A stretch of 64,000 nt of DNA from Gammaproteobacteria bacterium (GTDB lineage Bacteria > Pseudomonadota > Gammaproteobacteria > Chromatiales > Chromatiaceae), in assembly GCA_025458675.1 (NCBI GenBank), contig JALORY010000001.1, forward strand, positions 11,565 to 75,564, in the 5' to 3' direction. The notes under the pieces were generated by a model that did not search any database, was not told the origin of the DNA, and saw only the letters and a program-made list of their open reading frames with translations. Below, one piece after another: positions 15,666 to 34,216 of this stretch. How positions within the stretch are numbered: the first letter of the stretch is position 1; every line of letters begins with the position of its first letter. A program made the position numbers and the translations under genes.

Positions 15666-15706
15666 CCGCGATCGGCGCCGGCACCCCGGCGCCGTCCCGG
15701 AAAGAA

Positions 15707-15731
15707 GAAAGCCGCCCGATGGGCGGCTTTC
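15707..15731. terminator. Perfect 11-bp hairpin between convergent fadL and the dsrE-like gene; probable bidirectional terminator
   Basis: GAAAGCCGCCC-GAT-GGGCGGCTTTC read directly from the sequence, with a T-rich flank on the minus-strand side. Confidence 0.6.
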
Positions 15732-15755
15732 TCGTTCCTGCCGGATCTGGCGGAC

Positions 15756-16235
15756 TCAGATGTACAGGCAGATGTCGGTCTCGCCAGCGAACTCGAAGAA
15801 GGTCGCCGCGCCGCCGTACTCCACGTTGTCGATGAAGTCGGCCGGGTCGAGATCGAACAGGTCCACCGTCATCTGGCAGGCGATGAACTTCACCTCGGCC
15901 TCCTGGCAGAGGGTGCGAAGGTCCTCGATGCTGGCCACGCCCTTGGCCGCCATCTTCTTCTTCATCATCATGGTCATCATCGCCTGCATGCCGGGCAGCG
16001 CCGTCAGCAGGACGGGGAACCACTTGTCCATCGCCATCGGCATGGGCATGCCGGGGTTGCCGAGCGGCGTCACCTCGAGGGCCAGGTTCTTGCGCAGCAG
16101 CTGCAGGCCATAGAAGGTGAAGAAGATCTGCACTTCGTAGCCGAGCGCCGCCGCGGTCGAGCCCAGGATGAAGGGCGGGTAAGCCCAGTCCAGCGAGCCC
16201 TTCGTAGCGATGATCGCGAGCTTCTTTTGATCCAT
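15756..16235 (-). CDS. DsrE/DsrF/DrsH-like (DsrE3-type) sulfur relay protein
   Basis: ORF 15756..16235. MDQKKLAIIATKGSLDWAYPPFILGSTAAALG...FIACQMTVDLF (conserved Cys). Immediately downstream of tusA. Confidence 0.8.
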   Translation of the reverse strand: MDQKKLAIIATKGSLDWAYPPFILGSTAAALGYEVQIFFTFYGLQLLRKNLALEVTPLGNPGMPMPMAMDKWFPVLLTALPGMQAMMTMMMKKKMAAKGVASIEDLRTLCQEAEVKFIACQMTVDLFDLDPADFIDNVEYGGAATFFEFAGETDICLYI

Positions 16236-16280
16236 CGTTGTCTCCTCCCGGTGTCGGGAATGGGCGTGCGGATCGGAAGG

Positions 16281-16511
16281 TCAGGCCTTCTTGATCAGGA
16301 AGTGGAACTTGCCGCCTTCCTCGCGCGACTCGAGCAGCTCGTTGCCGGTCTGCTTCGCGAAGGCCTCGAAGTCCTTAACCGAGCCGGGGTCGGTGGCGAT
16401 GATGTGCAGCACCTGGCCCGAGCCGAGACCGGCGAGGGTCTTCTTCGCGCGCAGGATTGGCAGGGGGCAGTTCAGACCGCTGGCATCCAACTCTTGGTCG
16501 AAGTTGGCCAT
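16281..16511 (-). CDS. tusA: Sulfurtransferase TusA family protein
   Basis: MANFDQELDASGLNCPLPILRAKK (CPxP motif). ATG at 16511 lies behind GGAGG. The track ORF 16281..16598 starts further upstream. Confidence 0.9.
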   Translation of the reverse strand: MANFDQELDASGLNCPLPILRAKKTLAGLGSGQVLHIIATDPGSVKDFEAFAKQTGNELLESREEGGKFHFLIKKA

Positions 16512-16669
16512 AAGAACCTCCAGAGTTCTCGGTTTGCGTTGAGGAAGGGCGGAAAAATTAGAAGTTGGTTTTATATTTGAACGACCGCGAAAAGGCAACG
16601 GGCGAACGCCCGCGGCGACGGATTCCCCCGACGCAGGTCAACAATTTGGCGCCGGCGGCGACGCCGCGG

Positions 16670-17008
16670 TCAGCGCTGGGGACTGCGGCTCGGCGGCAGA
16701 ATCTCGTAACCGTGGCGGGCCCAGTCCACGATCCCGCCGCGCAGGTTGATGACGTTGCGAAACCCCTGCTGCATGAGGAACGCGCAGGCGTGGAACGAGC
16801 GGGCGCCGCTGCGGCAGTAGAGCACCACGTCCTTGTCGCGAGGAAACTCCTGGGCGCGCAGGGGGATGAGGTGCATGGGCAGGTGCTCCGAGTTGGGCAG
16901 CACGCCCTGCAGCACCTCGGCCTCGCTGCGGATGTCGAGCAGCTTGAGGTCGTCCCCGCGCTCGAGCCGCGTCTTGAGCTCGTCAACCGACATTTCCTGG
17001 ACGAACAC
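16670..17008 (-). CDS. Single-domain rhodanese sulfurtransferase
   Basis: ORF 16670..17008 (GTG start behind AGGAAAG). Active-site loop is YCRSGARS. Confidence 0.88.
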   Translation of the reverse strand: MFVQEMSVDELKTRLERGDDLKLLDIRSEAEVLQGVLPNSEHLPMHLIPLRAQEFPRDKDVVLYCRSGARSFHACAFLMQQGFRNVINLRGGIVDWARHGYEILPPSRSPQR

Positions 17009-17052
17009 GGGGGCTTTCCTGTCGAATCTGAAGGGTCGCTACCGGCGAGCGC

Positions 17053-17070
17053 AATAGTTTATAAATAGTT
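17053..17070. promoter_or_regulatory. Direct repeat AATAGTT-N4-AATAGTT (11-bp phasing) in the AT-rich rhodanese/cysG divergent promoter region
   Basis: Read directly: aatagtt (17053-17059) and aatagtt (17064-17070), inside an unusually AT-rich patch of a GC-rich genome. Confidence 0.3.
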
Positions 17071-17168
17071 CTTAATATTCCACAAGCAACGGCAGCCGAT
17101 GGTCGGCCGTCGGGGCGCCGGATCGCCGCGCGCCGTTCCGCATCTGTGGGCAGACTCGAGGAATCGCA

Positions 17169-18608
17169 ATGGAGCTCTTCCCCCTGTTCCTTCGCGTCCG
17201 TGACCGGCTGGGCGTCGTGGTGGGCGGCGGCGAGGTCGCGAGCCGCAAGGTCGAACTGCTCTGCCAGGCCGGCGCGCGGGTCCGCGTCGTCTCCCCCGCG
17301 CTCGCGCCGACCCTCGCGCGCCTCGCTGCCGACGGCGTGATCGATCACGTCGCGCGCGCCTTCGAGGACGGCGACACGGCTGGCGCGGCGCTGGTCGTCG
17401 CCGGCACGTCGGACCCCGCGACCAACCGCCGGGTCGCCGCGGAGGCCAAGGCCGCCAACCTCCCGGTCAACGTGGTGGACGACCCGGACGAAGGGACCTT
17501 CATCGTGCCCTCGGTGATCGACCGATCGCCCGTCGTCGTCGCCGTTTCCTCGGGTGGAGCCTCGCCCGTGCTCGCGCGCCTGATCCGCACCCGGCTCGAG
17601 TCGGTGATTCCGGCCGCCTACGGGCGCCTCGGCGAGCTCGCCGCGCGTTACCGCGACCGCGTCAAGGCGACCTTCGCCGATCCCGCCGACCGCCGCCGGT
17701 TCTGGGACCGTGTCCTGCAGGGCGGCGTGGCGGAGCGCGTGTTCTCCGGACACCTGGCAGAAGCCGACGCGGTGATGGAGCGCGAGCTGGCGCAGGCCAG
17801 CCCCTCGCAGGGCATGGGTGAGGTCTACCTGGTGGGAGGCGGCCCCGGCGACCCCGACCTCCTCACCTTCCGCGCCCTGCGACTGATGCAGCAGGCCGAG
17901 GTCGTGGTCTACGACCGGCTCGTCGCCAAGGCGGTGCTGGACATGACCCGGCGCGATGCGCGGCGCATCTACGTCGGCAAGGAGCGCGACAACCACGCGA
18001 TGCGCCAGGAGGAGATCAACCGGCTGCTCGCAGACCTGGCGCGGCAGGGCAGGCGCGTCGTGCGCCTGAAGGGGGGCGACCCCTTCATCTTCGGCCGCGG
18101 CGGCGAGGAGATCGACACCCTCGCGGCGGAGGGCATCCCCTTCCAGGTGGTGCCCGGAATCACGGCGGCCTCCGGCTGCGCCGCCTACGCCGGCATCCCG
18201 CTCACGCACCGCGACTTCGCCCAGTCGGTCACCTTCGTGACCGGCCACCTCAAGGACGGCACCATCAACCTCAACTGGCAGCAACTCGCCCAACCCAGTC
18301 AGACCGTCGTCTTCTACATGGGGCTGCACGGACTGGACGTGATCTGCGAGCGGCTGATCGCCCACGGCGTCCGGCCTTCCATGCCCGCGGCGCTGGTGCA
18401 GCAGGGAACGACGCCGATGCAGCGCGTGCTGACGGGGACGCTGGACACCCTGCCCGGCATCGTGGCGCGGGAGCAGCCGAAACCCCCTACCCTGCTGATC
18501 GTCGGCGAGGTCGTCCAGCTCCAGGAGAAGCTGTCCTGGTTCCACGCGGAGCCCGGTTCCGCGCAGGGCGCGACCACCACGGTCGAGCCGGGGACGGCCC
18601 CGGCCTAG
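17169..18608 (+). CDS. cysG: Siroheme synthase (precorrin-2 dehydrogenase / ferrochelatase / uroporphyrinogen-III C-methyltransferase)
   Basis: ORF 17169..18608. N-terminal Rossmann fold ([13 protein letters not shown]) plus a C-terminal SUMT domain ([15 protein letters not shown]...[15 protein letters not shown]). Confidence 0.95.
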
Positions 18609-18612
18609 ACCG

Positions 18613-19092
18613 TCAGGCGGGCGACGCCTCCTTCGGCCGCAGCTGGTCGGGCCGAAGCCGCGGCGTGAAGTACTCGTCGGCGTCGTCGAGGTCGACCTCG
18701 CCCCCGGCACGGTCGACGAGAGCCTGCTCGTAGTCCTTCCAGCCCCGCAGCCCGCTCGCCAGCGAGGCCACGTTCGAATAGCCCAGCACCTGCATGGCGT
18801 GTGCGGCGAGGATGCTGCGGTTGCCCGAGCGGCAGACGATGACGATCTCGCGATCGCGGGCGCGCACGAGCTCGGGCACCGTCTCCTCGTAGTCCCACTC
18901 GCAGGCCGACTCGAGAATGCCGCGGGGCACGTTCAGCGATCCCGGAATGTGCATCGCGTCGAACTCGTAGGGCTCGCGGACATCGAGGACCAGGAGGTCC
19001 GGATTGGTTTGCTGCCGCTCCACGAGGTCCCACGGCATGATCTCGCGGATGCCGCTGAGGCACTCCCTGATGAGCTCCATGAACCGCTTCAT
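18613..19092 (-). CDS. Rhodanese-like domain protein
   Basis: ORF 18613..19092. LVLDVREPYEF...VCRSGNRS active-site loop. Confidence 0.85.
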   Translation of the reverse strand: MKRFMELIRECLSGIREIMPWDLVERQQTNPDLLVLDVREPYEFDAMHIPGSLNVPRGILESACEWDYEETVPELVRARDREIVIVCRSGNRSILAAHAMQVLGYSNVASLASGLRGWKDYEQALVDRAGGEVDLDDADEYFTPRLRPDQLRPKEASPA

Positions 19093-21459: not shown

Positions 21460-23247
21460 CTAGCACTGCTCCTTCTGCTGCAGGTCCCACATTCCGGCGT
21501 AGCGCCCGCCGAGAGCGAGCAGCTGGGGGTGACTGCCGTGCTCGACCACGCGACCGCCTTCCATGACCAGGATGAGGTCGGCGTCGACCACGGTGGACAG
21601 CCGATGGGCGATGACGAGGGTCGTGCGCTCCGCCGCCACCTGCGCGAGCGTTTCCTGGATCGCCTGCTCCGTCCGGCTGTCGAGCGAGGACGTCGCCTCG
21701 TCGAACACCAGGATCCGCGGCCGCTTGAGGATGGCGCGCGCAATCGCGACGCGCTGCTTCTCGCCGCCGGAGAGCTTGAGCCCGCGCTCGCCCACGACCG
21801 TGTCCCACCCTGCCGGCAGCGATTCGACGAACGCGCGGATGTGCGCGAGCGACGCCGCCTGCGCGACCTCGGCACGGGTCGCGTCGGGCCGGCCGTAGGC
21901 GATGTTGTAGTAGATCGTGTCGTTGAACAGCACCGTGTCCTGCGGCACGACGCCGATCGCCTCGCGCAGGCTGGCCTGCGTGACGTGACGGATGTCCTGC
22001 CCGTCGACCAGGATCGCCCCGGCCGTCACGTCGTAGAAGCGGAACAGCAGCCGGGCGAGCGTCGACTTGCCCGCGCCGCTGTGGCCCACGACGGCGAGCT
22101 TGCGCCCCGGCGGGATGGTGAAGTCCACGCCGTCGAGAATGACGCGCTCCGGCTGGTAAGCGAAGCGCACGTTCTCGAAGCGCACCTCGCCGGGCCCGTG
22201 CAGGAGCGGGCCCGCACCGGGCGCGTCGGTGACCTCTGGCCGCTGCTCCAGCAGCCGGAACACGAGGTCCATGTCGGCGAGCGAGTACTTGATCTGGCGG
22301 TAGACGATGCCGAGGAAGTTGAGCGGGATGAAGAGCTGCAGCAGGAACGCGTTGACGAGCACGAGGTCGCCCAGTGTCATCGACCCGTCGGCCACGCCCT
22401 GCGCCGCGTAGAACATGATGGCGGTCACGCCCACCGCGATGATCGCGCCCTGGCCGAAGTTGAGCAGCGACATCGAGGACTGGCTCTTGACCGCGTACTC
22501 CTCCCACTCGCGCAGGGTGGCGTCGTAGCGGCCGTGCTCGAGTCGCTCGTTGGTGAAGTACTTCACCGTCTCGTAGTTGATCAGGCTGTCGATCGCCTGG
22601 GTGTTGGCGGTCGAGTCGAGCCGGTTCATCTGGTGGCGGAAGTCCATGCGCCACTCGGTGATGGCGAAGGTGAAGGCGACGTAGACGGCCACGGTGCCGA
22701 AGGTGACGATCGCGAACACCGGCGCGTAGCGCGCGAGCAGGATGCCGGCGACGAGCGCGAACTCGACGAGGATGGGCAGCACGCTGAAGACGAGGTAGTT
22801 GAGGATGGTGCTGACCGAGCGCGCGCCGCGCTCCAGGTCGCGGCTGACGGCTCCGGTCTGGCGCTCGAGGTGAAAACGCAGCGACAGTGCGTGGAGGTGC
22901 TCGAGCACCCGCGTCGAGAGTCGTCGCATCGCCCGGAAACGCACCCGGGCGAACACGACGTCGCGCAGTTCGTTGAACAGCGAGGCCCCGAGCTTGAGCG
23001 CACCGTAGGCGGCGAGCAGCGCCAGCGGCAGGACCGCTGCCTGGCCGGGCGAGCCCTGGAGCGCGTCGACGATCCCCTTGAGAACCAGCGGCACGCCGAT
23101 GTTGGCGCCCTTGGAGAGAATCAGGCAGGCGAGCGCGAACAGCGCCCGCCCGCGGAACTCCCACAGGTACGGCAGCATGCCGCGCAGGTTGCGCCAATCC
23201 CTCGGTGCAGCAGGGGTTCCGGTCTCGGCGGTCAGCTCGTCTCGCAT
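21460..23247 (-). CDS. atm1: ABC transporter, fused permease/ATPase of the Atm1/HMT1 (ABCB) type
   Basis: ORF 21460..23286, where 23286 is TTG; an ATG at 23247 gives MRDELTAE. Contains LPYLWEF..., Walker A GHSGAGKST and LSGGEKQRVAIARAILKRPRILVFDEATSSLD. Confidence 0.85.
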   Translation of the reverse strand: MRDELTAETGTPAAPRDWRNLRGMLPYLWEFRGRALFALACLILSKGANIGVPLVLKGIVDALQGSPGQAAVLPLALLAAYGALKLGASLFNELRDVVFARVRFRAMRRLSTRVLEHLHALSLRFHLERQTGAVSRDLERGARSVSTILNYLVFSVLPILVEFALVAGILLARYAPVFAIVTFGTVAVYVAFTFAITEWRMDFRHQMNRLDSTANTQAIDSLINYETVKYFTNERLEHGRYDATLREWEEYAVKSQSSMSLLNFGQGAIIAVGVTAIMFYAAQGVADGSMTLGDLVLVNAFLLQLFIPLNFLGIVYRQIKYSLADMDLVFRLLEQRPEVTDAPGAGPLLHGPGEVRFENVRFAYQPERVILDGVDFTIPPGRKLAVVGHSGAGKSTLARLLFRFYDVTAGAILVDGQDIRHVTQASLREAIGVVPQDTVLFNDTIYYNIAYGRPDATRAEVAQAASLAHIRAFVESLPAGWDTVVGERGLKLSGGEKQRVAIARAILKRPRILVFDEATSSLDSRTEQAIQETLAQVAAERTTLVIAHRLSTVVDADLILVMEGGRVVEHGSHPQLLALGGRYAGMWDLQQKEQC

Positions 23248-23738: not shown

Positions 23739-24488
23739 CTACGAAGCAACGCCCAGCCGCCCCGCCGCCTCCCGCCACAGCGCGGCGTAGGCCTCGGCGG
23801 CCTGGCTCGCCGGCGCGTACGCGGCGACCGGGGCGCGGTGCACGCCCATCTGCTCGACCTCGCTGCGGTAGGGAATCACCGTCGCGAGCATCGTCGCCCG
23901 CGGATCGGGCGCCGCGGCGAGGATGCCCTGGTGCAGCCGCTTGCGTCGGTCGGCCAGGGCGTAGAACGGCCACACGGCGACATCGCCCAACCCCTCCGCG
24001 GCGAGGAAGTCGAGCAGCTGGGTGAGCGTTCGCAGCGACAGCGGCGTGGGGATCACGGGCACGAGCAGCGCGTCCACCGCCCGGAAGACGTTCTCCGAGA
24101 CCAGCGTGAGGCTCGGCGGGCAATCGAGGATGAGCAGATCGTAGCCCTCGCGCACCGGCGCGATCAGCTGGCCCAGCTGCGCCTTCGGCTTCTTCGCCTC
24201 GTCGAGCAACAGGTCCATGCGCCGGTATGCGGGGTCGGCCGGGAGGATGTCCAGGCGCTCGAAGTCGCTGCCCTTGACCGCGTCGTCGAGAGGTCGCTTG
24301 CCGCGTAGCAGCTTCTTCGGCTTCGCGACCGCCGTGCGCACCCGCAGGTAGAACGACGCGGCGCCCTGGGGATCGAGATCCCACAGCAGGGTCCGCTGCC
24401 CGGCGGCTGCGCTCAGATAGGCGAGATTGACCGCGGTGGCCGTCTTTCCCACGCCCCCCTTGATGCTGTAGAGGGCGACGACCTTCAC
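23739..24488 (-). CDS. Orphan ParA/MinD-family ATPase
   Basis: C-terminal 249 aa of ORF 23739..25487. VKVVALYSIKGGVGKTATAVNLA carries the deviant Walker A motif (KGGxxGKT). GTG at 24488 overlaps the TGA of the upstream CHAD gene (GTGA). Confidence 0.85.
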   Translation of the reverse strand: MKVVALYSIKGGVGKTATAVNLAYLSAAAGQRTLLWDLDPQGAASFYLRVRTAVAKPKKLLRGKRPLDDAVKGSDFERLDILPADPAYRRMDLLLDEAKKPKAQLGQLIAPVREGYDLLILDCPPSLTLVSENVFRAVDALLVPVIPTPLSLRTLTQLLDFLAAEGLGDVAVWPFYALADRRKRLHQGILAAAPDPRATMLATVIPYRSEVEQMGVHRAPVAAYAPASQAAEAYAALWREAAGRLGVAS

Positions 24489-26059
24489 GCCGCCGGGTCC
24501 GCCGCCGGCTTGAACAGGGCGCGGTAGGCACCGCGGTTCTCTTCCGAATCCAGCGCGTCGAAGCGCGCGGCGAAGGCCGCCCGGGAGGCCGCCTGCCGGG
24601 CGCGCAGGCTGCCGACCAGCGCGCCGAGGGCGAGCAGCGTGCGGGCCGGCGCCCTCCCCTCCGCCGCCATGCGCTCGGCGAAGCCTTCGAGGTGCTGCGC
24701 CTGGACGGCGAGGTCCTGGTGCTCGCCGAGCACGTCGAGCAGGACCTTGAGCGCCTTGATGAGCGGATCCAGTCGCTCGGCGGGATACAGACTCGCGAAG
24801 AACTCCTGCAGGTAGCGCAGCTTCTTGCAGTCCTTGCGCAGCTCGTGCAGCACCTCGGGCGCCGGCGCCTCGACCGCGGCGCGTCCGTCCCGGATCACCC
24901 GCCGAAAGGCGCGCCAGATCCGCCGGCCGGCGAGCTCGCCGACGGGGAGCGCAGCATCGGGGGCCGCCTCCAGGTCGGGCTCCGCGTCGAGAAAATCGCG
25001 CCACTCGGTCATCAGGCCGCGGAAGCGTGGCGCGGCGAGCCGCCGCGCGAGCTGCGCCTGCTCGCGCCGGTGCTCGTCGAGCAGGAAGCCGCGGAAGGGC
25101 TCGAGGTCGCCCTGCAGGTCGACAGGCAGCTCGTCGTGGTACTCGGGCAGCTGCAGCAGGAAGACGTCCAGGTCGCGCGTGGGCCCGGTCACCTCGCCGA
25201 GCCAGCCGAACGCCTCGCGGAACTGCCGGACCCGCGCCTCCGGGAACACGTCCCGGATCTGCGTCAGGGCCGAACGGGTGCGGCGCACCGACACGCGCAG
25301 GTCGTGCAGGAACTCGGGATCCAGGCCCGCGCGCGTGCCGGCGACGTTGGCCTCGAGCGTCTCCAGCAGCTGCCGGTGGATCCGGCGAGCCGCCTCGGCA
25401 CCCGGAAGCTCGGGGGTCAGGCGAACGCGAATCTTGGACGAGTAGCCGCCGGGCGCGACCCCGAGCACGCGACAGACGGCCTCGCACTCGCAGCGTGGCA
25501 CCGCGCGCGCGGCGAAGCGCCGCTCGAGCTGCGCCGCGACCGCGTCGGCCGAATCGTCGTAACCCTTCAGCGGCTCGAGGATCAACCGCCGGGGCAAGGG
25601 CACGCGCAGCCGCGGGGTCCCCTCGGTTGCCACCGCGTGACCGTCCTCCTCCGCCAGGCGCAGGACCGTCTTCCCGTCACCGTCGACCAGGCGCCAGCGG
25701 CGGACGCGGGCCTCGAGGCCGGCCCTCGCCAGCAGCACCCGCGGCGCCAGCAGATCGGCCAGCGCGTCGCGCAGCGCCCCGGGGGGCAGATCGTCGACCC
25801 CGATCGGAAACTCGGCCAGAGCCGGTGCCGCGATCACGGCACCGTCGCGGGAGCAGAGCTCCCAGTGCCGCTTCGCGCCCTCGGCGACCCGCGCCAGCCG
25901 CAGGCCCCGCGCGTGCAGACGCCAGTCGAAGCTGTCCGCGAACTCGTAGCGCCGCCGGCCCGCGGGCTCCTCGACGAGGGCCCAGCCGGGCCCCAACGCG
26001 TCGATCAGCGCGGCCGGCTCGAAAGGGGCGGGAATCTCGTGGATGTCGGGTCCGGGCAT
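24485..26059 (-). CDS. CYTH-like + CHAD domain protein (polyphosphate-associated family)
   Basis: ORF 24485..26104 trimmed to MPGPDIHE. The N-terminus (YEFADSFDWRLHARGLRLARV) resembles the CYTH core. The C-terminal helical CHAD region contains HDLRVSVRRTRSAL...LHELRKDCKKLRY...LGEHQD. Confidence 0.8.
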   Translation of the reverse strand: MPGPDIHEIPAPFEPAALIDALGPGWALVEEPAGRRRYEFADSFDWRLHARGLRLARVAEGAKRHWELCSRDGAVIAAPALAEFPIGVDDLPPGALRDALADLLAPRVLLARAGLEARVRRWRLVDGDGKTVLRLAEEDGHAVATEGTPRLRVPLPRRLILEPLKGYDDSADAVAAQLERRFAARAVPRCECEAVCRVLGVAPGGYSSKIRVRLTPELPGAEAARRIHRQLLETLEANVAGTRAGLDPEFLHDLRVSVRRTRSALTQIRDVFPEARVRQFREAFGWLGEVTGPTRDLDVFLLQLPEYHDELPVDLQGDLEPFRGFLLDEHRREQAQLARRLAAPRFRGLMTEWRDFLDAEPDLEAAPDAALPVGELAGRRIWRAFRRVIRDGRAAVEAPAPEVLHELRKDCKKLRYLQEFFASLYPAERLDPLIKALKVLLDVLGEHQDLAVQAQHLEGFAERMAAEGRAPARTLLALGALVGSLRARQAASRAAFAARFDALDSEENRGAYRALFKPAADPAA

Positions 26060-26150
26060 CGGCGGCCTCACCGGGCGGCACCGCCGACCGGCAGCGGCAA
26101 TCATGCCACGCCGCGCCCGGCGCCGGGTTACGGGCTCGCGGGACAGCGCC

Positions 26151-26876
26151 TCAGCCGGCGTCGAGGAAGCCGCTCGACAGGTGCTCTGCCTTCACGTAGC
26201 GCACGTCCTTGCCCTTGACCGCGTAGATCACGAACTCGGCGAGATTGGTGGCGTGATCGCCGACGCGCTCGAGGGCCTTGAGCACGAACACCGCCTCGAT
26301 GACGTGCCGCACATTGCGCGGGTCCTCGAACAGGAAGGTCGCGAGCCGCCGCAGGCCGGCGTGGAAGGCCTCGTTCAGCTGCTCGTCACCCTGCACGACG
26401 GCCACGGCCTTGTCGACGTCCAGCTCCTCCACCGCCTCGAGCGCGTCCTCGAGCAGCTCCACGGCGCTCGCCGCCATGTGTCGCGCGTCCTGGAACAGGG
26501 AGGGGATGGGCTGCAGGTCGTTCTCGCCGTAGACGCGGCTGACGACGTAGCCGAGCTTCTTGGTCTCGTCGGCCGCGCGCTCGAGATTGTTCACGGCCTG
26601 GGACATCGCCATCACGAAGCGCAGATCCGAGGCCACCGGCTGGCGGGTCGCCAGCAGCTCGAGGCAGAGCTCCTGGCCCTTCATGTCCAGCGTGTTGATG
26701 TCCCGATCGCGGTGCACGACCTGGCGCGCGAGCCCCGTGTCGCCCTCCTCGAGGGCCTGCGCCGCGTCCCGCACCTGCTGCAGGACGAGCCGCCCCATCT
26801 CGAGGACCAGGTCCTTGAGCGAGCCGAGCTGCGCGTCGAAGCGCTGGACGATGTGCCCGCCTTCCTTGCCGTTCAT
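26151..26876 (-). CDS. phoU: Phosphate signalling complex protein PhoU
   Basis: ORF 26151..26876. Shows the two PhoU repeats (..HRDRDINTLD.. / ..LERVGDHATNLAE..). Confidence 0.93.
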   Translation of the reverse strand: MNGKEGGHIVQRFDAQLGSLKDLVLEMGRLVLQQVRDAAQALEEGDTGLARQVVHRDRDINTLDMKGQELCLELLATRQPVASDLRFVMAMSQAVNNLERAADETKKLGYVVSRVYGENDLQPIPSLFQDARHMAASAVELLEDALEAVEELDVDKAVAVVQGDEQLNEAFHAGLRRLATFLFEDPRNVRHVIEAVFVLKALERVGDHATNLAEFVIYAVKGKDVRYVKAEHLSSGFLDAG

Positions 26877-26895: not shown

Positions 26896-27771
26896 TCAGC
26901 CGAAGCGGCCGGTGATGTAGTCTTCCGTGAGCTTGTGGCGGGGATTGGTGAAGATCTGAGTGGTCTCGCCGACCTCGATGAGGTCGCCGAGGTGGAAATA
27001 GGCCGTGCGCTGCGAGACGCGCGCCGCCTGCTGCATCGAGTGCGTGACGATGCAGATCGTGTAGTTCTGTCGCAGCTCGTCGATCAGTTCCTCGATCTTC
27101 GCCGTGGCGATCGGATCGAGCGCCGAGCAGGGCTCGTCCATCAGGATCACCTCCGGCGACACCGCGATCGCGCGCGCGATGCACAGGCGCTGCTGCTGGC
27201 CGCCGGAGAGGCCGGTCCCGGGCTGGTCGAGTCGGTCCTTCACCTCGTCCCACAGCCCCGCGCGGCGCAGGCTGCTCTCGACGATCTCGTCGAGCTCCGC
27301 GCGCGACGCCGCGATGCCGTGGATGCGCGGGCCGTAGGCGATGTTGTCGTAGATGGGCTTCGGGAACGGGTTCGGCTTCTGGAACACCATGCCGACCTGG
27401 GCCCGCAGGACCACCGGGTCCATCTGCCGGTCGTACACGTCCTTGTCGTCGAGGGTGATGTGGCCCGTGACCCGGCATCCCTCGACCGTGTCGTTCATGC
27501 GGTTCAGGCAGCGCAGGAAGGTCGACTTGCCGCAGCCCGAGGGGCCGATCATGGCGATCACCTCGTTGCTGCCGATGTCGAGAGTGACGTTCTTGATCGC
27601 GTGCTTGTCGCCGTAGTAGACGTCGACGCCGCGCGTGCGCATCCGCGGATTGGCGACCGTCACCTCCCCGACCGTGCCGGAGAAGTTGCGGATCCTGAGG
27701 CCGTCCATCGCGTCAGCTCTGCCCGCCACGCCAGTCGCCGCGTCCGAAAGGGTGCCCATCGTAGCGTTCAT
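26896..27771 (-). CDS. pstB: Phosphate ABC transporter ATP-binding protein
   Basis: ORF 26896..27804, where 27804 is TTG; first ATG at 27771. [12 protein letters not shown]...[19 protein letters not shown]...[14 protein letters not shown]. Confidence 0.93.
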
Positions 27772-27808: not shown

Positions 27809-29122
27809 TTACCAGCGCCGTTCGAAGCGCTTGCGCAGGTAGACGGCCAGGGCGTTCATCGCGATGAGGAAGGCCAGCAGCACGATGATCGCGGCCGCCG
27901 TCTTCTCGACGAACGCGCGCTCGGGACTGTCGGCCCAGAGGTAGATCTGCACCGGCAGGAGGGTCGACGGGTCGAAGAAACCCTTCGGCACGTCCACGAC
28001 GAACGCCACCATGCCGATCATGAGCAGCGGCGCGGTCTCGCCCAGGGCGTGCGCCATGCCGATGATCATGCCCGTCATCATCCCGGGCATGGCGAGCGGC
28101 AGCACGTGGTGGAAGACGGTCTGCATCTTCGAGGCCCCGACGCCGAGCGCGGCCTCGCGGATGGACGGCGGCACCGACTTCAAGGCCGCGCGGCCGGCGA
28201 TGATGATCGTCGGCAGCACCATGAGCGCCAGGACCAGGCCGCCCACCACCGGTGCCGAGCGCGGCATCCCGAAGAAGTTGATGAGCACCGCGAGGCCCAG
28301 CAGGCCGAACACGATCGACGGCACCGCGGCCAGGTTGTTGATGTTGACCTCGATGAGGTCCGTCAGGCGGTTCTTCGGCGCGAACTCCTCGAGGTACACC
28401 GCCGCCGCCACCCCGATCGGGAAGGAGATCACCAGGCAGACCAGCAGCGTGTAGAACGAGCCCATGACCGCGCCGCCGATGCCCGCGAGCTCGGGCTCGC
28501 GCGAGTCGCCATTCGTGAAGAAGCGCCAGTTGAACCGGGTGTCGACGGCGCCCTTCTTCTCCAGCACGTCCAGCCAGCCGAGGACGCGATCGCTGACGCG
28601 GCGCTGATCCTCGGGGACCCTGCGGTCGATGTGCCCCTTCATGACCATGTCGACGTCGTCGGACGCGATCAGCCACAGGTCGCGCGTGGTCCCGACCAGG
28701 GACGGGTCCGCCTTTACCATGTCCTGCAGCTGGTACTCGGCACCGCTGCTGACCATCCCGAACAGTTCGCGAAGCTCGCTGCGCCCCGACACGTCGGGAA
28801 AGGCCGCCTGCATCGCCCTCTTGACCAGGGCGGCGTAGTCCGCGCCCGCGAGCGCCGCCGGGTCGCGCCGGCCCTCGGGGTCGAGCGCCTCCTGGTCGAA
28901 GGTCACCTGGACCTTCAGGTAGGTCTGCTCGAAGCCCGTGTAGCCGTTCAGGATGATGCTGAGGAAGAGCGAGCCGACGAAGGCGAGGCCCGTCAGCACG
29001 GCGAGCCGGCCCGTCAGGCGGAAACGGCGCTCCTTCGCGTAACGCCGCGGCAGCGAGGCCCGCACCGCGTCGATGGTTCGCCGGCGCGGTGCCCCGGCGG
29101 ACGATGGGTTGTCGTCACTCAT
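27809..29122 (-). CDS. pstA: Phosphate ABC transporter permease PstA (long form)
   Basis: ORF 27809..29122. Overlaps pstC by 8 nt. Permease motif region: [15 protein letters not shown]. Confidence 0.9.
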
Positions 29123-30524
29123 ACTGTTCCCGGTACTTGCGCACGACGTGCAGCGCGATGACGTTGAGGCCGAGGGTCACGACGAAGAGCACCAGGCCCA
29201 GCGCGAAGGCGGCCAGGGTCTTGGGGCTGTCGAACTCCTGGTCGCCCACCAGCAGGGTGACGATCTGGACCGTGACGGTCGTCACGCTGTCCAGCGGGTT
29301 TGCGGTGAGTTTGGCGGACAGCCCCGCCGCCATCACGACGATCATCGTCTCGCCGATGGCCCGCGACACCGCGAGCAGGATGCTGCCCACGATGCCGGGC
29401 AGCGCGGCCGGCAGCACCACCTGCCGCACGGTCTCGGACTGGGTGGCGCCGAGGGCGTACGAGGCGTCGCGCATGGACTGGGGCACCGCGTTGATGACGT
29501 CGTCCGACAGCGAGGAGACGAACGGGATGATCATGATGCCCATCACGAGGCCCGCCGCGAGCGCGCTCTCGGAGGCGACCTCGAGGCCGAGCGCCACGCC
29601 CGCGTCGCGCACCAGCGGGGCGACGGTGAGCGCGGCGAAGAAGCCGTAGACCACGGTCGGGATCCCCGCGAGGACCTCGAGCACGGGCTTGGCGACCGCC
29701 CGGAACTCGCGGGACGCGTACTCCGACAGGTAGATGGCGGCCATGAGACCGATCGGCACCGCCACCAGCATCGCGATCCCCGAGATCAGCAGCGTTCCGG
29801 TGAAGAGCGGCACGGCGCCGAAGGCCCCCGAGGATCCCGCCTGGTCGGCGCGCAACGCGATCTGGGGGCTCCAGTCCAGGCCGAACAGGAAGCTCGTCAT
29901 GGGCACGGTGCGGAAGAACAGGATGGACTCGAAGAGCACCGACAGGACGATGCCGACGGTCGTGAAGATCGCGATCAGCGACGCCACGATCAGCAGCACG
30001 TTGACGATCGCCTCGACGCGGTTGCGCGCGCGCAGCCGGGGCGAGATCTGACGCCACGCCAGCCCACCGCCGATGACGCCCAGCGACAGCACCACGACCG
30101 CCATCGCCGCGGCCGAGGTGCGCTCGAGGCTCTTCAGGTGGTCCGCCGCGGCCCGCAGCTCCGGCGTCACCTCGCGGGAGACCACGTTGCCGCTCGTGAG
30201 ATTGCGGACGTCGTTGAGCACGAGGCCGAGGCGGTCGGGGCCGAGCTGCTGCATCTCCTGGGGCAGGTCGCGCACGACGAGCTCGGTCACGATCGTGGAG
30301 CGGAACGCCACCCAGAGCGCGAGCACCAGCAGCGCCGGGATCAGGCACCAGAGCGCCGCGTACGACCCGTAGTAGCTGGGCAGGGAGTGCAGGTTCCGGA
30401 TGCCGCCCGCGCCGGCGGACACCGCCACCGACCGGCGACGGCCGAGCACATAGGCCACGGCCGTCAGGACCAGGAGCGCTGCGATCAGCAGGGGTGTGCT
30501 CATGGGAACACTCTGCGAGGCCAC
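29115..30524 (-). CDS. pstC: Phosphate ABC transporter permease PstC (long form)
   Basis: ORF 29115..30524 (GTG start; an alternative ATG at 30503 gives MSTPLLIA). Permease motif: MRDASYALGATQSET. Confidence 0.9.
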   Translation of the reverse strand: MASQSVPMSTPLLIAALLVLTAVAYVLGRRRSVAVSAGAGGIRNLHSLPSYYGSYAALWCLIPALLVLALWVAFRSTIVTELVVRDLPQEMQQLGPDRLGLVLNDVRNLTSGNVVSREVTPELRAAADHLKSLERTSAAAMAVVVLSLGVIGGGLAWRQISPRLRARNRVEAIVNVLLIVASLIAIFTTVGIVLSVLFESILFFRTVPMTSFLFGLDWSPQIALRADQAGSSGAFGAVPLFTGTLLISGIAMLVAVPIGLMAAIYLSEYASREFRAVAKPVLEVLAGIPTVVYGFFAALTVAPLVRDAGVALGLEVASESALAAGLVMGIMIIPFVSSLSDDVINAVPQSMRDASYALGATQSETVRQVVLPAALPGIVGSILLAVSRAIGETMIVVMAAGLSAKLTANPLDSVTTVTVQIVTLLVGDQEFDSPKTLAAFALGLVLFVVTLGLNVIALHVVRKYREQYE

Positions 30525-30595: not shown

Positions 30596-31654
30596 TTAGT
30601 GCAGGCCTTCGCCCGTCATCACCTTGAGCTGCTGGGCGTCGGCCGCAAACTGCTTACGCTCGGCCTCGGGCATCGGGATCATGCCCTTCTCCGCCAGGTA
30701 GCCGTCCTTGCCCCAGGCCTTGTCGGACGTGAACTCCGTCAGATACTCGCGGATCCCCGGGATCACGTCCACGTGCGCCTTCTTGACGTAGAAGTAGAGC
30801 GGACGGGACACCTTGTATGCGCCGGCGGCGATGTTCTCGAAGGTGGGAAGCGCGCCCTCGACCTCCGAGCCCTTCACCTTGTCGGCGTTCTGGTCGAGAA
30901 AGCTGAAGCCGAAGACGCCGAAGGCGTTCTTGTTGGCGGCCAGCTTCTGCACGATCAGGTTGTCGTTCTCGCCCGCCTCGACGTAGGCGCCGTCCTCGCG
31001 GACGGTCATGCAGGCCTTCTTGAAGCCGTCCTTGTTCTCCTTCTCCATCGCCTTGATGAAATCGAACTTCTTGCAGCCCTCCTCCATCACCAGTTCGACG
31101 AAGGCGTCGCGCGTGCCGGAGGTCGGCGGGGGACCGAGGACCTCGATCTTGGTGTCCGGGAGATCCTTGCTGACGTCCTTCCAGGTCTTGTACGGGTTCG
31201 GGACCATCTTCGGGGCGCCGGTCGGGTCCGGGACTTCCTTCGACAGCGCCAGGTAGAGATCCTTGCGGCTGATCTTCATCAGGGGCGCGGCCTTCGCGTT
31301 GGCGAGGACGATGCCGTCGTAGCCGACCTTCATCTCGACGATGTTCGTGACGCCGTTCTTCTGGCAGGTCTCGAACTCGCCCTGCTTGATCCGCCGGGAG
31401 GCATTGGAGATGTCGGGGTGCTCGACGCCGATGCCGTTGCAGAACAGCTTCATGCCGCCGCCGGTGCCGGTCGACTCGATCTTGGGGGTCTTGATGCCCT
31501 TGGCCTTGCCGACCTTCTCGGCCACCACGGTCGCGAAGGGGTAGACGGTCGACGAGCCGACGATGCTGATGTAGTCGCGGCCGGCCGAGGCGTAGGCGCC
31601 GGTCGCGGCGACGGCGGTGGCGAGCACGGTGAGCTTCAGGGTCTTGCTGAGCAC
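30596..31654 (-). CDS. pstS: Phosphate ABC transporter substrate-binding protein (PstS family)
   Basis: Inside ORF 30596..32116. GTG at 31654 lies behind AGGAGG and gives VLSKTLKLTVLATAVAATGAYA (signal peptide). Contains GSSTVYPF...TGTGGG...SGTRDAF. Confidence 0.88.
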   Translation of the reverse strand: MLSKTLKLTVLATAVAATGAYASAGRDYISIVGSSTVYPFATVVAEKVGKAKGIKTPKIESTGTGGGMKLFCNGIGVEHPDISNASRRIKQGEFETCQKNGVTNIVEMKVGYDGIVLANAKAAPLMKISRKDLYLALSKEVPDPTGAPKMVPNPYKTWKDVSKDLPDTKIEVLGPPPTSGTRDAFVELVMEEGCKKFDFIKAMEKENKDGFKKACMTVREDGAYVEAGENDNLIVQKLAANKNAFGVFGFSFLDQNADKVKGSEVEGALPTFENIAAGAYKVSRPLYFYVKKAHVDVIPGIREYLTEFTSDKAWGKDGYLAEKGMIPMPEAERKQFAADAQQLKVMTGEGLH

Positions 31655-31764: not shown

Positions 31765-31782
31765 ATGAAGGAAATGTGACAG
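31765..31782 (-). promoter_or_regulatory. Pho box (PhoB binding site) of the pstS promoter
   Basis: The minus strand reads CTGTCAC-ATTT-CCTTCAT, against the E. coli consensus CTGTCAT-A(A/T)A(T/A)-CTGTCA(C/T). It is followed 10 nt later by a TATGCT -10-like hexamer (31749-31754). Confidence 0.55.
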
Positions 31783-31812: not shown

Positions 31813-32211
31813 TCAGTGCTTGGTCGCCGAAGGCTTCGCCGCGGGCGGCGGCGCGTCGTCGCGCTCGGGTGCCTGCAGGGACCGCAGGACCGTGCGCACC
31901 GCGGTGAAGACGTCCTCCCCGGGGTGATCGGCGCAGTGCAGCGTGATGCGCCGCACGGCGCCGTCCAGCTGCAGGTTCCGCAACAGGTCGTCGCCGGTGG
32001 CGAGGTTGACGCCGGAGACGAAGCCGGCGATCCAGTCCGCGTAGCGGCGCAGTTCCAGGATCCCCGTGTCCTCGCCCCGGTCGGCGCTGCGGGCCGCGGC
32101 GGCGAGCGCTTCGCACCGCTTGACGCCGAAGCCGACGAGCCCCCCGGCGTCGGGTGCGGCCGCCGAGGCGGCCAGGGGAAGAAGCACGAGACCCGCGAGA
32201 TGGCGCCGCAT
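31813..32211 (-). CDS. Small secreted hypothetical protein (132 aa)
   Basis: MRRHLAGLVLLPLAASAAAPDAG... (signal peptide), inside ORF 31813..32502. Lies downstream of the LapD-like gene. No family recognised. Confidence 0.5.
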   Translation of the reverse strand: MRRHLAGLVLLPLAASAAAPDAGGLVGFGVKRCEALAAAARSADRGEDTGILELRRYADWIAGFVSGVNLATGDDLLRNLQLDGAVRRITLHCADHPGEDVFTAVRTVLRSLQAPERDDAPPPAAKPSATKH

Positions 32212-32257: not shown

Positions 32258-34216
32258 TCAGCCCGGCCGGCCGAGATGGTAACCCTGGGCGCCGTCGACG
32301 CCGAGCCCCTCGAGCGCCTGCCACTGCGCCTCGGACTCGATGGCCTCCACGTACACGGGGATGCCGAGCCCGCGCGCAATGTGGGCCGCCGCCCGGACGT
32401 AGCAGCGGCTGTCGACGTGCCGCTCGAGCCGGGCCGCGAAGCTGCCGTCGATCTTGAGGTGGCACAGGGGCAGGCGGTGCAGGTAGTCGAACGACGCCGC
32501 ACCCGTGCCGAAGTGATCGACGGCGAGGCGCACGCCGAACGGGGCGAGGCGCTCGGCCAGCGCGGCGGCTTCGGGGACCGCAGCCTGCACGCCCGGGTCG
32601 GCGATCTCCAGGATGAGGCGACGCGCCTGGGCGGGACTCGCGCGCGCCGCCGACGCGAGCCATTCGGACATTCCCGGCGCTCGCAGGGAGCTCGGCGCGA
32701 GGTTCACCGCCATCGGCTGGTCGCCGGGGTGGTCGGCGAGGCGGCGCAGGGCCTCGGCGACCACCGCCCGGTCGACCTCCGCGGCCACGGCCGGGTCCCC
32801 GGCCGCGAGGAGCTCGCCGACCGGCATCAGCGGCTCGCTGCCGTTGCCTTCGATCCGCGCATAGGCCTCCAGGTGCCGCAGCGCCCGGCTGTCGTAGGCG
32901 ACCGCCGGCTGCAGCAGGAGCCGAAGGCCGCCACTGCGCAGGGCCGCGACCGTGGCATCCCGCCGGCCGCCGTCGTCCGGCTCGTGCCGCGGCCGCACCG
33001 GCCCCTCGCTCGGGCGGCCCGGCACGTTCCGCCACTCGGTCTTGCGCAGGTCGCGGTCCGCCTCCGCGAACAGGGCGGAGATGGTCTGACCGTGGAAATA
33101 CGCGCCGCCGGCATAGGTGACCAGCGAGGTCGGGAACCGCAGGCGCGAGGCCAACCGCCCGAGCGCGGCGTTGAGCGTGGCGACCCGCTCGCGCGTCGCC
33201 ACCGGACCGGCGCTCGGCACGAAGGCCGCGAACTCGCCTCCCGCCAGGTGGGCGATCAGGACCTCGGGCCCGTGACCCAGGGTGTCCTCGAGCAGGCGTG
33301 CGGTCTCGCGCAGGACATCGTCGCCGGCCGCATAGCCGAAGGTATCGTTGACGCCCTTCACGCCGTCGACCCGTGCCAGCAGAAGCGCCCCGGTCCAGGC
33401 CTGCTCGGGGTCCCGGCGCCGGTACTCGAGGATGTCGAGCAGCCAGCTGCGGGTGAGCAGGCCGGTCAGCTGATCGCGCGACGCGCGCTCGTGCAGTGTC
33501 GAGGCGAGCGCCTGCGCGCCCGTGAGCAACAGCCGCGAGCGCCGGCCGAGCTCCGCGAGCGCCGCCGACACGACGTCCCCGGCCGCGGCGTCTGCCCGGT
33601 CCGGAGCGGCGTCCCAGCGCAAGGCGTCCCTGGCCTTCGCCTCCAGCCCGCGCAGCGGCCGTGACACTGCGCCGACGGCGCTCCACACGCCGAGGAGCAG
33701 CGCCACGGCGGCAATCGCCGCCGGCACCGCGGTGTGCAGGACCGCCTCCCAGACGAGGTCCTGGCCTCTGGCAGCGTCGGCCAGGACGGTGACGCGGGCG
33801 GCCCCGCCGGTGCCGTCGATGTCGAGCGCGTGCGGGCTCGACGCCACCGGGAGCAGGTGTGCGAGCCAGGCGGGGCAACGCCGCGCCTGCCGGGCGCGCT
33901 CGCGCTGGACCCACGGGTCCGCGCCGGGCGTCGCCACGCTCGCGACCCGCAGGTGGCTGCGCGCAACGACGGTGTCCAGCGCCGCCGCGACGGCATCGCG
34001 GTCGCCGCGGGTCGTGGCAGGCCCCAGGCTGCCGGCCAGGTCGTGCGCCGCGTCGGCCGCGGCCGCCGACAGCTCCGCCTCGACGGCCCGGCGACTGCCC
34101 ATCGCCGTCGCCAGGAGCCCGACGACGTAGAGGGCCAGCACCAGCGCCCCGACGAGGAGGCGCAGCTGCCTCGCGAGCAGCGTTGCGCTGCGTTGTCGAG
34201 GCTCAGCGAGAGCCAC
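32258..34216 (-). CDS. LapD/MoxY-N-type membrane protein with degenerate GGDEF (AGGEF) and EAL domains
   Basis: ORF 32258..34342. Probable GTG start at 34216, but the start is uncertain. GGDEF-like region: HLAGGEFAAF. EAL region: LLLQPAV...HLEAYARI...AVNLAP...LILEIAD...LAVDHFGTG...HLKIDG...VEAIESE...GAQGYHLGRP. Confidence 0.8.
   Translation of the reverse strand: MALAEPRQRSATLLARQLRLLVGALVLALYVVGLLATAMGSRRAVEAELSAAAADAAHDLAGSLGPATTRGDRDAVAAALDTVVARSHLRVASVATPGADPWVQRERARQARRCPAWLAHLLPVASSPHALDIDGTGGAARVTVLADAARGQDLVWEAVLHTAVPAAIAAVALLLGVWSAVGAVSRPLRGLEAKARDALRWDAAPDRADAAAGDVVSAALAELGRRSRLLLTGAQALASTLHERASRDQLTGLLTRSWLLDILEYRRRDPEQAWTGALLLARVDGVKGVNDTFGYAAGDDVLRETARLLEDTLGHGPEVLIAHLAGGEFAAFVPSAGPVATRERVATLNAALGRLASRLRFPTSLVTYAGGAYFHGQTISALFAEADRDLRKTEWRNVPGRPSEGPVRPRHEPDDGGRRDATVAALRSGGLRLLLQPAVAYDSRALRHLEAYARIEGNGSEPLMPVGELLAAGDPAVAAEVDRAVVAEALRRLADHPGDQPMAVNLAPSSLRAPGMSEWLASAARASPAQARRLILEIADPGVQAAVPEAAALAERLAPFGVRLAVDHFGTGAASFDYLHRLPLCHLKIDGSFAARLERHVDSRCYVRAAAHIARGLGIPVYVEAIESEAQWQALEGLGVDGAQGYHLGRPG

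Follow-up and report, generated by a model that had tools for sequence, protein, structure and literature searches.

In this study, we describe a pair of overlapping genes as a candidate machine for the positioning of polyphosphate (polyP) granules in bacteria. The pair lies in a 64-kb stretch of DNA from a gammaproteobacterium (the window, by which we mean the whole of the stretch analysed), at the tail of the phosphate genes pstSCAB-phoU, and encodes a 524-amino-acid protein with a CHAD domain and a 249-amino-acid ParA/MinD-type ATPase. The two genes are translationally coupled, keep together across phyla, have been inherited together and stand without ParB or parS; one product keeps the residues that contact polyP and the other those of a ParA-type ATPase. 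Based on these results, we lean, though not far, towards reading the pair as a self-contained two-component ParA-type positioning or partition system with the polyP granule as its cargo, in which the CHAD protein would localise to granules, the ATPase would bind DNA, the two would interact with stimulation of ATP hydrolysis, and expression would be under Pho control. Whether the pair is the first representative of a widespread partition system of the ParA type, driven by ATP and dedicated to these granules, with a TTM-like-CHAD protein as adaptor, we consider evenly poised. The cassette is in our opinion the best available candidate for ATP-driven spacing and partition of polyP storage granules.

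Results

The CHAD and ParA genes keep together across phyla

Conservation of the CHAD-ParA adjacency had been set beforehand as a check by the first-pass annotation of the window, and it was borne out from either side. Seeding with the ParA only, in a scan of one genome per species, recovered 80 loci at 49-58% identity, from Gammaproteobacteria (Chromatiaceae, Methylococcales, Thiotrichales, Pseudomonadales, Steroidobacteraceae, Halomonas), many Actinomycetota families, Acidobacteriota, Planctomycetota, Dormiibacterota and Zetaproteobacteria. Of 79 loci that could be evaluated, 63 have a gene for an N-domain-CHAD protein as the immediate upstream neighbour in the same orientation, and the identical 4-nt NTGA overlap of stop and start codons is found in 49 of these 63. 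The paired carriers belong to Gammaproteobacteria, many Actinomycetota families, Planctomycetota and Dormiibacterota, and thus to at least four phyla. Seeding with the CHAD protein only, by running CHAD-core patterns against metagenome contigs, yielded 75 loci in which 150 nt or more follow the CHAD stop codon; in 58 of them a ParA of the same family comes directly downstream, with the 4-nt overlap in 43 of the 58. Cultured bacteria are among the carriers (Thiosocius teredinicola and Sedimenticola hydrogenitrophicus, with Acidithiobacillus according to the literature alone).

The CHAD and ParA genes are inherited and transferred together. Their pairwise distances correlate with r=0.90 (Mantel test, 0/999). 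For the CHAD protein and the ParA alike, the closest relative of the planctomycete pair is one and the same gammaproteobacterial pair. No third neighbour is conserved across lineages when the genes are called with a caller based on the GC content of third codon positions (GC3); shared neighbours are confined to closely related actinobacteria, in which alpha/beta hydrolase, DUF3040, radical SAM and MFS genes, unrelated to phosphate, are common. Clustering of raw six-frame open reading frames (ORFs) likewise brought out no third conserved gene, its candidates all being artefacts of alternative frames within the GC-rich CHAD and ParA genes. The flanks vary across carriers among flagellar, cyclic di-GMP (c-di-GMP), MFS or hydrolase genes: in T. 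teredinicola (CP019936.1, around 3.48 Mb), as in a relative from the Chromatiaceae, the pair has flagellar genes on one side and fimV on the other, and it lies between c-di-GMP signalling genes and an S24-ABC exporter block like that of the window in S. hydrogenitrophicus. As no other neighbour is conserved across lineages, the functional unit is the CHAD-ParA pair, and the pairing conserved in both directions, together with the co-inheritance, makes a self-contained, translationally coupled two-gene cassette the unit of selection.

Two proteins of the Streptosporangiaceae lineage join both partners in a single ORF, CHAD-linker-ParA, on two independent long contigs (P0248, 852 amino acids; P0365, 854 amino acids), and their linkers of about 35 residues differ in sequence. 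These may be genuine fusions, which would be suggestive Rosetta-stone evidence for a functional link.

The unpaired members of both families were also characterised. The ParAs without an adjacent CHAD gene comprise a basal gammaproteobacterial/Steroidobacteraceae clade, Halomonas and a few singletons, and no alternative partner was found at their loci, where the neighbours (MFS, RmuC, OYE, formamidase, fasciclin) are unrelated. Members of this set (L036, L068 and L073 from Halomonas; L035, L039, L041, L043, L047, L059 and L064) score 324-343 bits against the family profile. Most of the CHAD proteins without ParA fall in one clade, with N-termini of the form MSLQFEFP.NLTAE.. (L119, L122, L126-L128, L134-L136, L142, L149-L151), which suggests lineage-specific loss or relocation of the ATPase. 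The related locus L140 has a ParA 61 nt away.

The ATPase forms a ParA family of its own

The ATPase (N-terminus VKVVALYSIKGGVGKT) carries the deviant Walker A motif SIKGGVGKT and has no helix-turn-helix (HTH) extension in its 249 residues, as had been read from the window at first. The signature Lys10 and K15 of this motif are invariant in 27/27 family members. Walker A' D37-L-D39 (DLDPQ) and Walker B LILD122CPPS are likewise invariant in the family, and the signature lysine, the Walker A'/B motifs and the profile match place the protein in the ParA/MinD deviant-Walker-A superfamily. A further motif, D180-R181-R182-K183-x-x-H186, is invariant as well, and its R182 aligns with the arginine of the 'DGRT' segment of T. 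thermophilus Soj, which we take to correspond to R189 of B. subtilis Soj, the DNA-binding arginine reported by Hester & Lutkenhaus 2007. The Soj segment 'NVRLSEAPS' is replaced by a family-specific 'S.IE.M...RAPV'. Conserved basic residues of the family are R32, R49, K72, R89, R153, R181-K183 and R218. The C-terminal tails are variable and show no MinD-like amphipathic membrane helix. Judged from the sequences, nucleoid binding by this ParA family is plausible.

The separation of the family was judged by profile scores against PDB chains. All 81 members, from several phyla, score 324-421 bits, versus 119 bits for the best solved ParA/Soj, ParA 8RAY, which is also the best PDB relative of the window's ATPase (2.5e-24). 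Lower scores were obtained for T. thermophilus Soj (101), H. pylori Soj (87), archaeal MinD (62), McdA (57; 6NON/6NOO), FleN (50), P1 ParA (48) and E. coli MinD (35). None of the NCBIfam equivalogs reaches its cutoff for the window's protein: the best, ParA_partition NF041546, gives 83 bits where 180 are required, MinD TIGR01968 gives 33 where 213 are required, and RepA, SopA and PrgP stay far below. Grouping with Soj or plasmid ParA had been named by the first-pass annotation as a refuting outcome. By these scores, the proteins instead make up an orthologous family of their own, which has the small Soj-type ParAs as its nearest relatives and is separate from Soj, plasmid ParA, McdA and MinD. 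Their source annotations read 'ParA family' or 'chromosome partitioning protein'.

The description of the ATPase gene as an orphan also held. There are no ParB, replication, conjugation, chemotaxis or carboxysome genes within ±10 kb of it, no parS at up to 3 mismatches across the 64-kb window, and no centromere-like repeats or repeat array at the locus.

The CHAD protein keeps the polyP-contacting residues

The Pfam CHAD profile (PF05235) matches the 524-amino-acid protein with 197.8 bits, against a cutoff of 25.6. Its C-terminal ~310 residues match the Chlorobium tepidum CHAD (CtCHAD) structures 3E0S, 6QV7 and 6QVA (3e-49; 6.5e-78 with the family profile), and the domain is 35% identical to the CtCHAD of the polyP complex. 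The AlphaFold 2 (AF2) model of the whole protein (predicted local distance difference test, pLDDT, 92; predicted template modelling score, pTM, 0.85) aligns in Foldseek with 6QV7, 6QVA (the polyP complex) and 3E0S at template modelling (TM) scores of 0.90-0.94 and a root-mean-square deviation of ~2 Å. In this model, the domain fits the long type of CHAD, with two four-helix bundles around a central basic pore. Mutations of H253, R256, R260, R296 and R418/Y419 in CtCHAD lower polyP binding up to 150-fold (Lorenzo-Orts et al. 2019, PMC6537752), and the equivalent residues H252, R255, R259, R295 and R415/Y416 are invariant in 43 sequences. The crystallised CtCHAD is numbered as residues 207-522 (PMC6537752), and therefore the Chlorobium protein matches the present one in overall length and layout. 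The CHAD-protein family comprises 4,335 representative clusters at E<=1e-30, and the top 150 are nearly all of ~520 amino acids and matched over their full length.

The N-terminal ~205 residues had been labelled CYTH, and this label did not survive. Pfam CYTH (PF01928) has no match at E<=1 in 43/43 family members (42 homologues and this protein), and a search of the PDB with the family profile found no TTM protein by sequence and no match to the N-domain. What is left is a resemblance in fold: in Foldseek the model aligns with full-length E. coli YgiF 5A60 (TTM+CHAD) at E 4e-9, and the N-domain aligns with many TTM proteins, among them 2GFG, 2EEN, 7NS8 and 3SY3, at a target-normalised TM score (TMt) of ~0.6. 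The N-domain is modelled as a beta-barrel that is TTM/CYTH-like at the fold level, with the eight-stranded tunnel fold. The ExExK metal-binding catalytic motif is absent and strand 1 reads F.LP in the family; DSFDWRL, R107, K130 and R134 are conserved. Because ExExK is lost and Pfam CYTH does not match, triphosphatase or cyclase activity is unlikely, and the N-domain is probably a degenerate, non-catalytic TTM-like domain.

The locus and its links to phosphate genes

Gene order was established from the ORF list, the translations and profile scans, and was checked against two public assemblies of the same gammaproteobacterial organism, known from metagenome-assembled genomes (GCA_025491015.1 and GCA_025490995.1), whose independent gene calls agree with the order in the window (Table 1). 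The window is GC-rich, and the entire pst-phoU-CHAD-ParA region lies on the minus strand. The gene coordinates, the 91 nt between phoU and the CHAD gene, the shared strand and the GTGA overlap all stood as first annotated.

Table 1. Features of the pst-phoU-CHAD-ParA locus and its immediate flanks (positions in the 64-kb window)
Feature	Position	Strand	Basis or remark
Pho-box-like site CTGTCACATTTCCTTCAT	31765-31782	-	upstream of pstS
pstS	30596-31654	-	gene call and Pfam family
pstC	29115-30503	-	gene call and Pfam family
pstA	27809-29122	-	gene call and Pfam family
pstB	26896-27771	-	gene call and Pfam family
phoU	26151-26876	-	TIGR02135, 196 bits
phoU-CHAD spacer, 91 nt	26060-26150	-	Shine-Dalgarno-like GGTGAGG 6 nt before ATG
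CHAD protein gene, 524 aa	24485-26059	-	Pfam CHAD, 3e-58
N-terminal TTM/CYTH-like beta-barrel domain of CHAD protein (modelled)	25445-26059	-	~aa 1-205
CHAD domain, long type with central pore (modelled)	24512-25441	-	~aa 207-516 of the 524-aa protein
GTGA stop/start overlap	24485-24488	-	CHAD TGA overlaps ParA GTG; translational coupling
ParA/MinD-type ATPase gene, 249 aa	23739-24488	-	Pfam AAA_31 2.8e-33, CbiA 4.8e-13
S24 peptidase-domain protein, 104 aa	23348-23662	+	convergent with ParA gene
ABC exporter (ABC_membrane + ABC_tran)	21460-23247	-	downstream of CHAD-ParA pair

A Pho box had been reported for the pst genes. The site, CTGTCACATTTCCTTCAT, precedes the start codon of pstS by about 110 nt. 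It agrees with the doubled E. coli consensus at 15/18 positions, with 3 mismatches, and the window contains 2 such sites where 1.8 are expected. As this count is not above chance, position alone supports the site. There is no terminator-like site in the spacer between phoU and the CHAD gene, so that read-through from the pst promoter is plausible, and in this organism the CHAD-ParA cassette is probably read through from a Pho-regulated promoter. Pho control of the pair holds at most for this lineage. The location behind phoU, which had been put forward as a feature of the pair, was recovered in the closest clade, the only one with the order pstB-phoU-CHAD-ParA (L086-L088, L093; CHAD 55-64% identical), and did not extend to the genomic loci, of which 0/80 have phoU or pstB near the pair.

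In several independent arrangements, genes of phosphate metabolism are again found close to CHAD genes of this type. A second lineage has a PstS-like binding protein and a PhoU-domain protein encoded ~1 kb downstream of the pair (L117, L156, L160, L165), and Acidithiobacillus has a conserved folD-ppk-parA-(CYTH-)CHAD cluster (PMC6416229, PMC10892726), whose ParA may belong to the present family. Locus L100 belongs to the same PstS-like/PhoU-domain lineage and is without a ParA gene. In that lineage (L160:7137-9320 and L165:3123-5197 for the two genes together), the gene of the PstS-like protein is followed by that of the PhoU-domain protein, an unusual PhoU fusion with a C-terminus that weakly resembles low-molecular-weight phosphatase or ArsC (LMWPc). 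Plasmid pTs417 of Candidatus Thiodictyon syntrophicum (L168; 417 kb, non-mobilizable) encodes a CHAD protein of 528 amino acids at 400687-402273, with pstS ~3 kb upstream and no adjacent ParA.

Beyond the pair, the 104-amino-acid S24 protein is a LexA/UmuD-like peptidase domain alone, without HTH, and is followed by an ATM1-type ABC exporter; genes for a LuxR-type regulator and a HisKA_3 kinase lie further on. Synteny of the whole block, CHAD-ParA-S24-ABC exporter, extends to L087, L088, L091, L095, L101, L141 and S. hydrogenitrophicus (L167). In one public assembly the exporter is split into two ORFs (L081:11242-12941, versus the intact L082:11242-13029), by frameshift or assembly error, and the window agrees with the intact version. 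On the other side, a 132-amino-acid protein without Pfam match (31813-32211, minus strand) lies directly upstream of the pstS promoter region, and beyond it a LapD/MoxY_N-GGDEF-EAL protein (32258-34216, minus strand). A sulfur-trafficking cluster within 14424-19092, a few kb from the locus, fits a sulfur-oxidising gammaproteobacterium; it contains rhodaneses (16670-17008 and 18613-19092), TusA (16281-16511), a DsrE-family gene (15756-16235), and the siroheme synthase gene cysG (17169-18608, plus strand). A Toluene_X/FadL-type outer-membrane protein is encoded at 14424-15665. An Rfam scan of the window gave no match, and there is no link to a defence system, since PADLOC returned a weak P-loop match alone.

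Discussion

ATPases of the ParA/MinD group position cargos, and their genes usually adjoin that of the cargo adaptor; CHAD domains bind polyP, and CHAD proteins decorate polyP granules. These two bodies of knowledge, taken with the co-inheritance of the pair in the absence of ParB and parS, lead to the proposal that the pair positions granules. The 524-amino-acid protein would coat polyP granules through its long, pore-containing CHAD domain, and its degenerate TTM-like N-domain, probably non-catalytic, would perhaps bind a polyP end or the ParA. ATP-bound dimers of the 249-amino-acid ATPase would bind the nucleoid non-specifically. Contact of the granule-bound CHAD protein with these dimers would stimulate ATP hydrolysis and so create local zones of ParA depletion, which would push the granules apart and along the nucleoid by a Brownian ratchet, as McdAB does with carboxysomes. 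The outcome would be granules that stay separate, are evenly spaced and are equally inherited. The position of the cassette at the tail of pstSCAB-phoU, with Pho read-through, would tie its expression to phosphate status.

The comparison with known systems shows what is shared and what is different. Like McdA/McdB, the pair combines a small HTH-less ParA-type ATPase with the neighbouring gene for a binder of a non-DNA cytoplasmic inclusion made of protein or polymer; neither system has ParB or a centromere, the nucleoid is the expected matrix in both, and McdA is a detectable relative (57 bits). As in McdAB-like systems, the ATPase is encoded next to a candidate cargo-binding adaptor and the pairing is conserved (63/79 and 58/75 loci). 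In contrast to McdAB, the adaptor of the present pair, a TTM-like-CHAD protein, has no relation to McdB, the cargo would be a granule of an inorganic polymer, carboxysome genes are absent, and the adaptor gene precedes the ATPase gene and overlaps it by 4 nt; the ATPase retains the classical signature lysine and lies nearer to Soj than to McdA (119 vs 57 bits). Soj/ParA of ParABS systems (8RAY, 1WCV/2BEK, 6IUB) are the best relatives in sequence and structure, of similar size (~250 amino acids), and share the deviant Walker A, the Walker A'/B motifs and the residue aligned to the arginine of the TtSoj 'DGRT' segment. They differ from our ParA, which has no ParB or parS, belongs to a separate orthologous group and has a polyP-binding partner.

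On the side of the adaptor, the CHAD phosins and C. tepidum CHAD have the same long CHAD domain with central basic pore and all the polyP-contacting residues, and E. coli YgiF has the same two-domain TTM+CHAD layout; the key distinction is that the N-domain here has lost ExExK and is unrecognised by Pfam CYTH. In the literature that we searched, no ParA partner, and no function beyond polyP binding and granule localisation, has been assigned to CHAD proteins. AlgP of P. aeruginosa and the PhaM/PhaF-type tethers, which act on polyP or polyhydroxybutyrate (PHB) granules, have the same proposed outcome, evenly spaced, non-coalescing, nucleoid-associated granules. They are single DNA-binding tethers with no known energy input and of unrelated sequence, whereas we propose a two-protein system that consumes ATP.

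A 2025 review of organelle positioning lists AlgP, a passive tether, as its sole entry for polyP granules and asks whether energy is used, and a 2024 review of ParA/MinD proteins does not mention polyP. A 2026 cyanobacterial study found polyP granule spacing to be ParA-like, yet excluded McdA and found no ParA responsible in its organism. Taken together, the reviews and the 2026 study indicate that polyP granules look ParA-positioned and that no such system is known. Our own search of open-access papers and bioRxiv preprints found no ParA system for polyP granules, proposed or characterised, in line with what the first-pass annotation had supposed. The adjacency itself has been drawn before, in two papers on Acidithiobacillus (PMC6416229, PMC10892726), where parA adjoins a CYTH-CHAD gene, together with ppk1, and the cluster is conserved within the genus. 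In these papers the ParA is assigned to the partition of plasmids or chromosomes, the CHAD protein is taken for an adenylate cyclase or a copper-related protein, and no joint function is proposed. Our reading would extend cargo positioning by ParA/MinD proteins to a further cargo and to an adaptor of a new class.

Several points weigh against granule positioning. First, an adjacent CHAD gene is missing for 16 of the 79 evaluable family ParAs, and a ParA for 17 of the 75 CHAD proteins with this architecture, so that the partnership is not obligatory in cis, and no N- or C-terminal peptide separates the ParA-linked from the ParA-less CHAD proteins. Second, the other Soj DNA-binding arginine, that of the NVRLSEAP motif and presumably R218 of B. 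subtilis, is not conserved in position in the ParA family. Third, two further apparent fusions, in L045 (5306-7768) and L080 (5444-7771), are probably assembly indels, as indicated by a 1-nt difference from a sister locus and by a 97%-identical relative that is unfused; in addition, the AF2 model of the natural fusion P0248 has a pTM of 0.64 and a disordered linker, and therefore predicts no confident ParA-CHAD interface. Granule localisation, DNA binding and the interaction of the two proteins are properties that we infer. Finally, the deletion of CHAD proteins (phosins) in several organisms leaves granule formation largely intact, as discussed in the 2026 study, and S. elongatus, the organism of that study, spaces its polyP granules without a dedicated ParA, which means that ParA-independent mechanisms exist. 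Overall, the interpretation offered in the first-pass annotation is partly supported.

Four other explanations of the pair have to be weighed. The one that survives best, and that we still hold to be unlikely, is that the pair regulates polyP metabolism or the association of polyP with the nucleoid and not spacing, the ParA acting as a nucleotide switch like FlhG/FleN or BcsQ-type proteins. It would recruit or release the CHAD protein, and hence the access of PPK/PPX, or tether polyP to DNA and so modulate chromatin. Members of the ParA/MinD group do regulate assembly, and the family profile matches FleN, BcsQ-type and MinD proteins; the links to ppk, phoU and pstS are as compatible with metabolism as with positioning, and the degenerate triphosphate-tunnel N-domain could sense a phosphate ligand. 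However, the closest sequence relatives are the nucleoid-binding Soj-type ParAs, no polyP enzyme is conserved beside the pair across lineages, and CHAD domains are without enzymatic activity (PMC6537752).

Granule positioning also supposes that the nucleoid is the matrix and the granule the cargo, and these roles might be reversed: the basic surface of the ParA would bind polyP as its matrix, or the CHAD-marked granule would serve as a landmark for the positioning of another component. We consider this doubtful, and more so than a switch in metabolism. The conserved basic residues listed above (R32, R49, K72, R89, R153, R181-K183, R218) could bind any polyanion, and both the lack of positional conservation of the second Soj arginine and the ParAs without adjacent CHAD (16/79) would be in keeping with it. 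Against this stand the absence of a third conserved gene that could encode another cargo and the fact that we found no precedent in the ParA/MinD reviews.

The location in the window invites a third explanation, that the pair is an accessory of Pst/PhoU phosphate signalling and, for example, localises the transporter or modulates PhoR signalling. The pair follows phoU immediately, the spacer holds no terminator-like site, the order is the same in the nearest relatives (L086-L088, L093), and PstS-like and PhoU-domain genes lie near the pair in the second lineage. Nevertheless, 0/80 genomic loci have phoU or pstB near the pair, most carriers have unrelated contexts, and the sole invariant partner is the polyP-binding CHAD protein, which leaves this explanation very improbable in our eyes.

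The last, that the ParA is a leftover or active partition ATPase of a plasmid, an integrative and conjugative element (ICE) or the chromosome that stands beside CHAD by accident, draws on the chromosomal ParA/Soj proteins as nearest solved relatives and on the source annotations of the family, and it is scarcely credible and effectively refuted by the comparative data: no ParB within ±10 kb and no parS in the window, a pairing and 4-nt overlap conserved across phyla, CHAD relatives on 5 of 72,556 plasmids (all five non-mobilizable megaplasmids, the CHAD-ParA module being essentially absent from the plasmid collection), no NCBIfam partition equivalog at cutoff, and a clear score gap to Soj and plasmid ParAs.

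In conclusion, the spacing and inheritance of polyP granules in bacteria is a long-standing question, and the CHAD-ParA cassette offers a concrete two-gene candidate; as the pair is present in cultured bacteria, the question of granule positioning is directly testable. If our reading is true, the polyP granule would be the second non-DNA, non-membrane inclusion, after carboxysomes, with a ParA machine of its own, and an inorganic polymer would join the list of ParA/MinD cargos. The TTM-like-CHAD protein would represent a new class of cargo adaptor, and the CHAD 'phosins' would gain a role as cargo adaptors beyond polyP binding. We would then also know if cells expend energy to position storage granules. 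The cassette is of further relevance to the phosphorus-accumulating organisms used in wastewater treatment and biomining.

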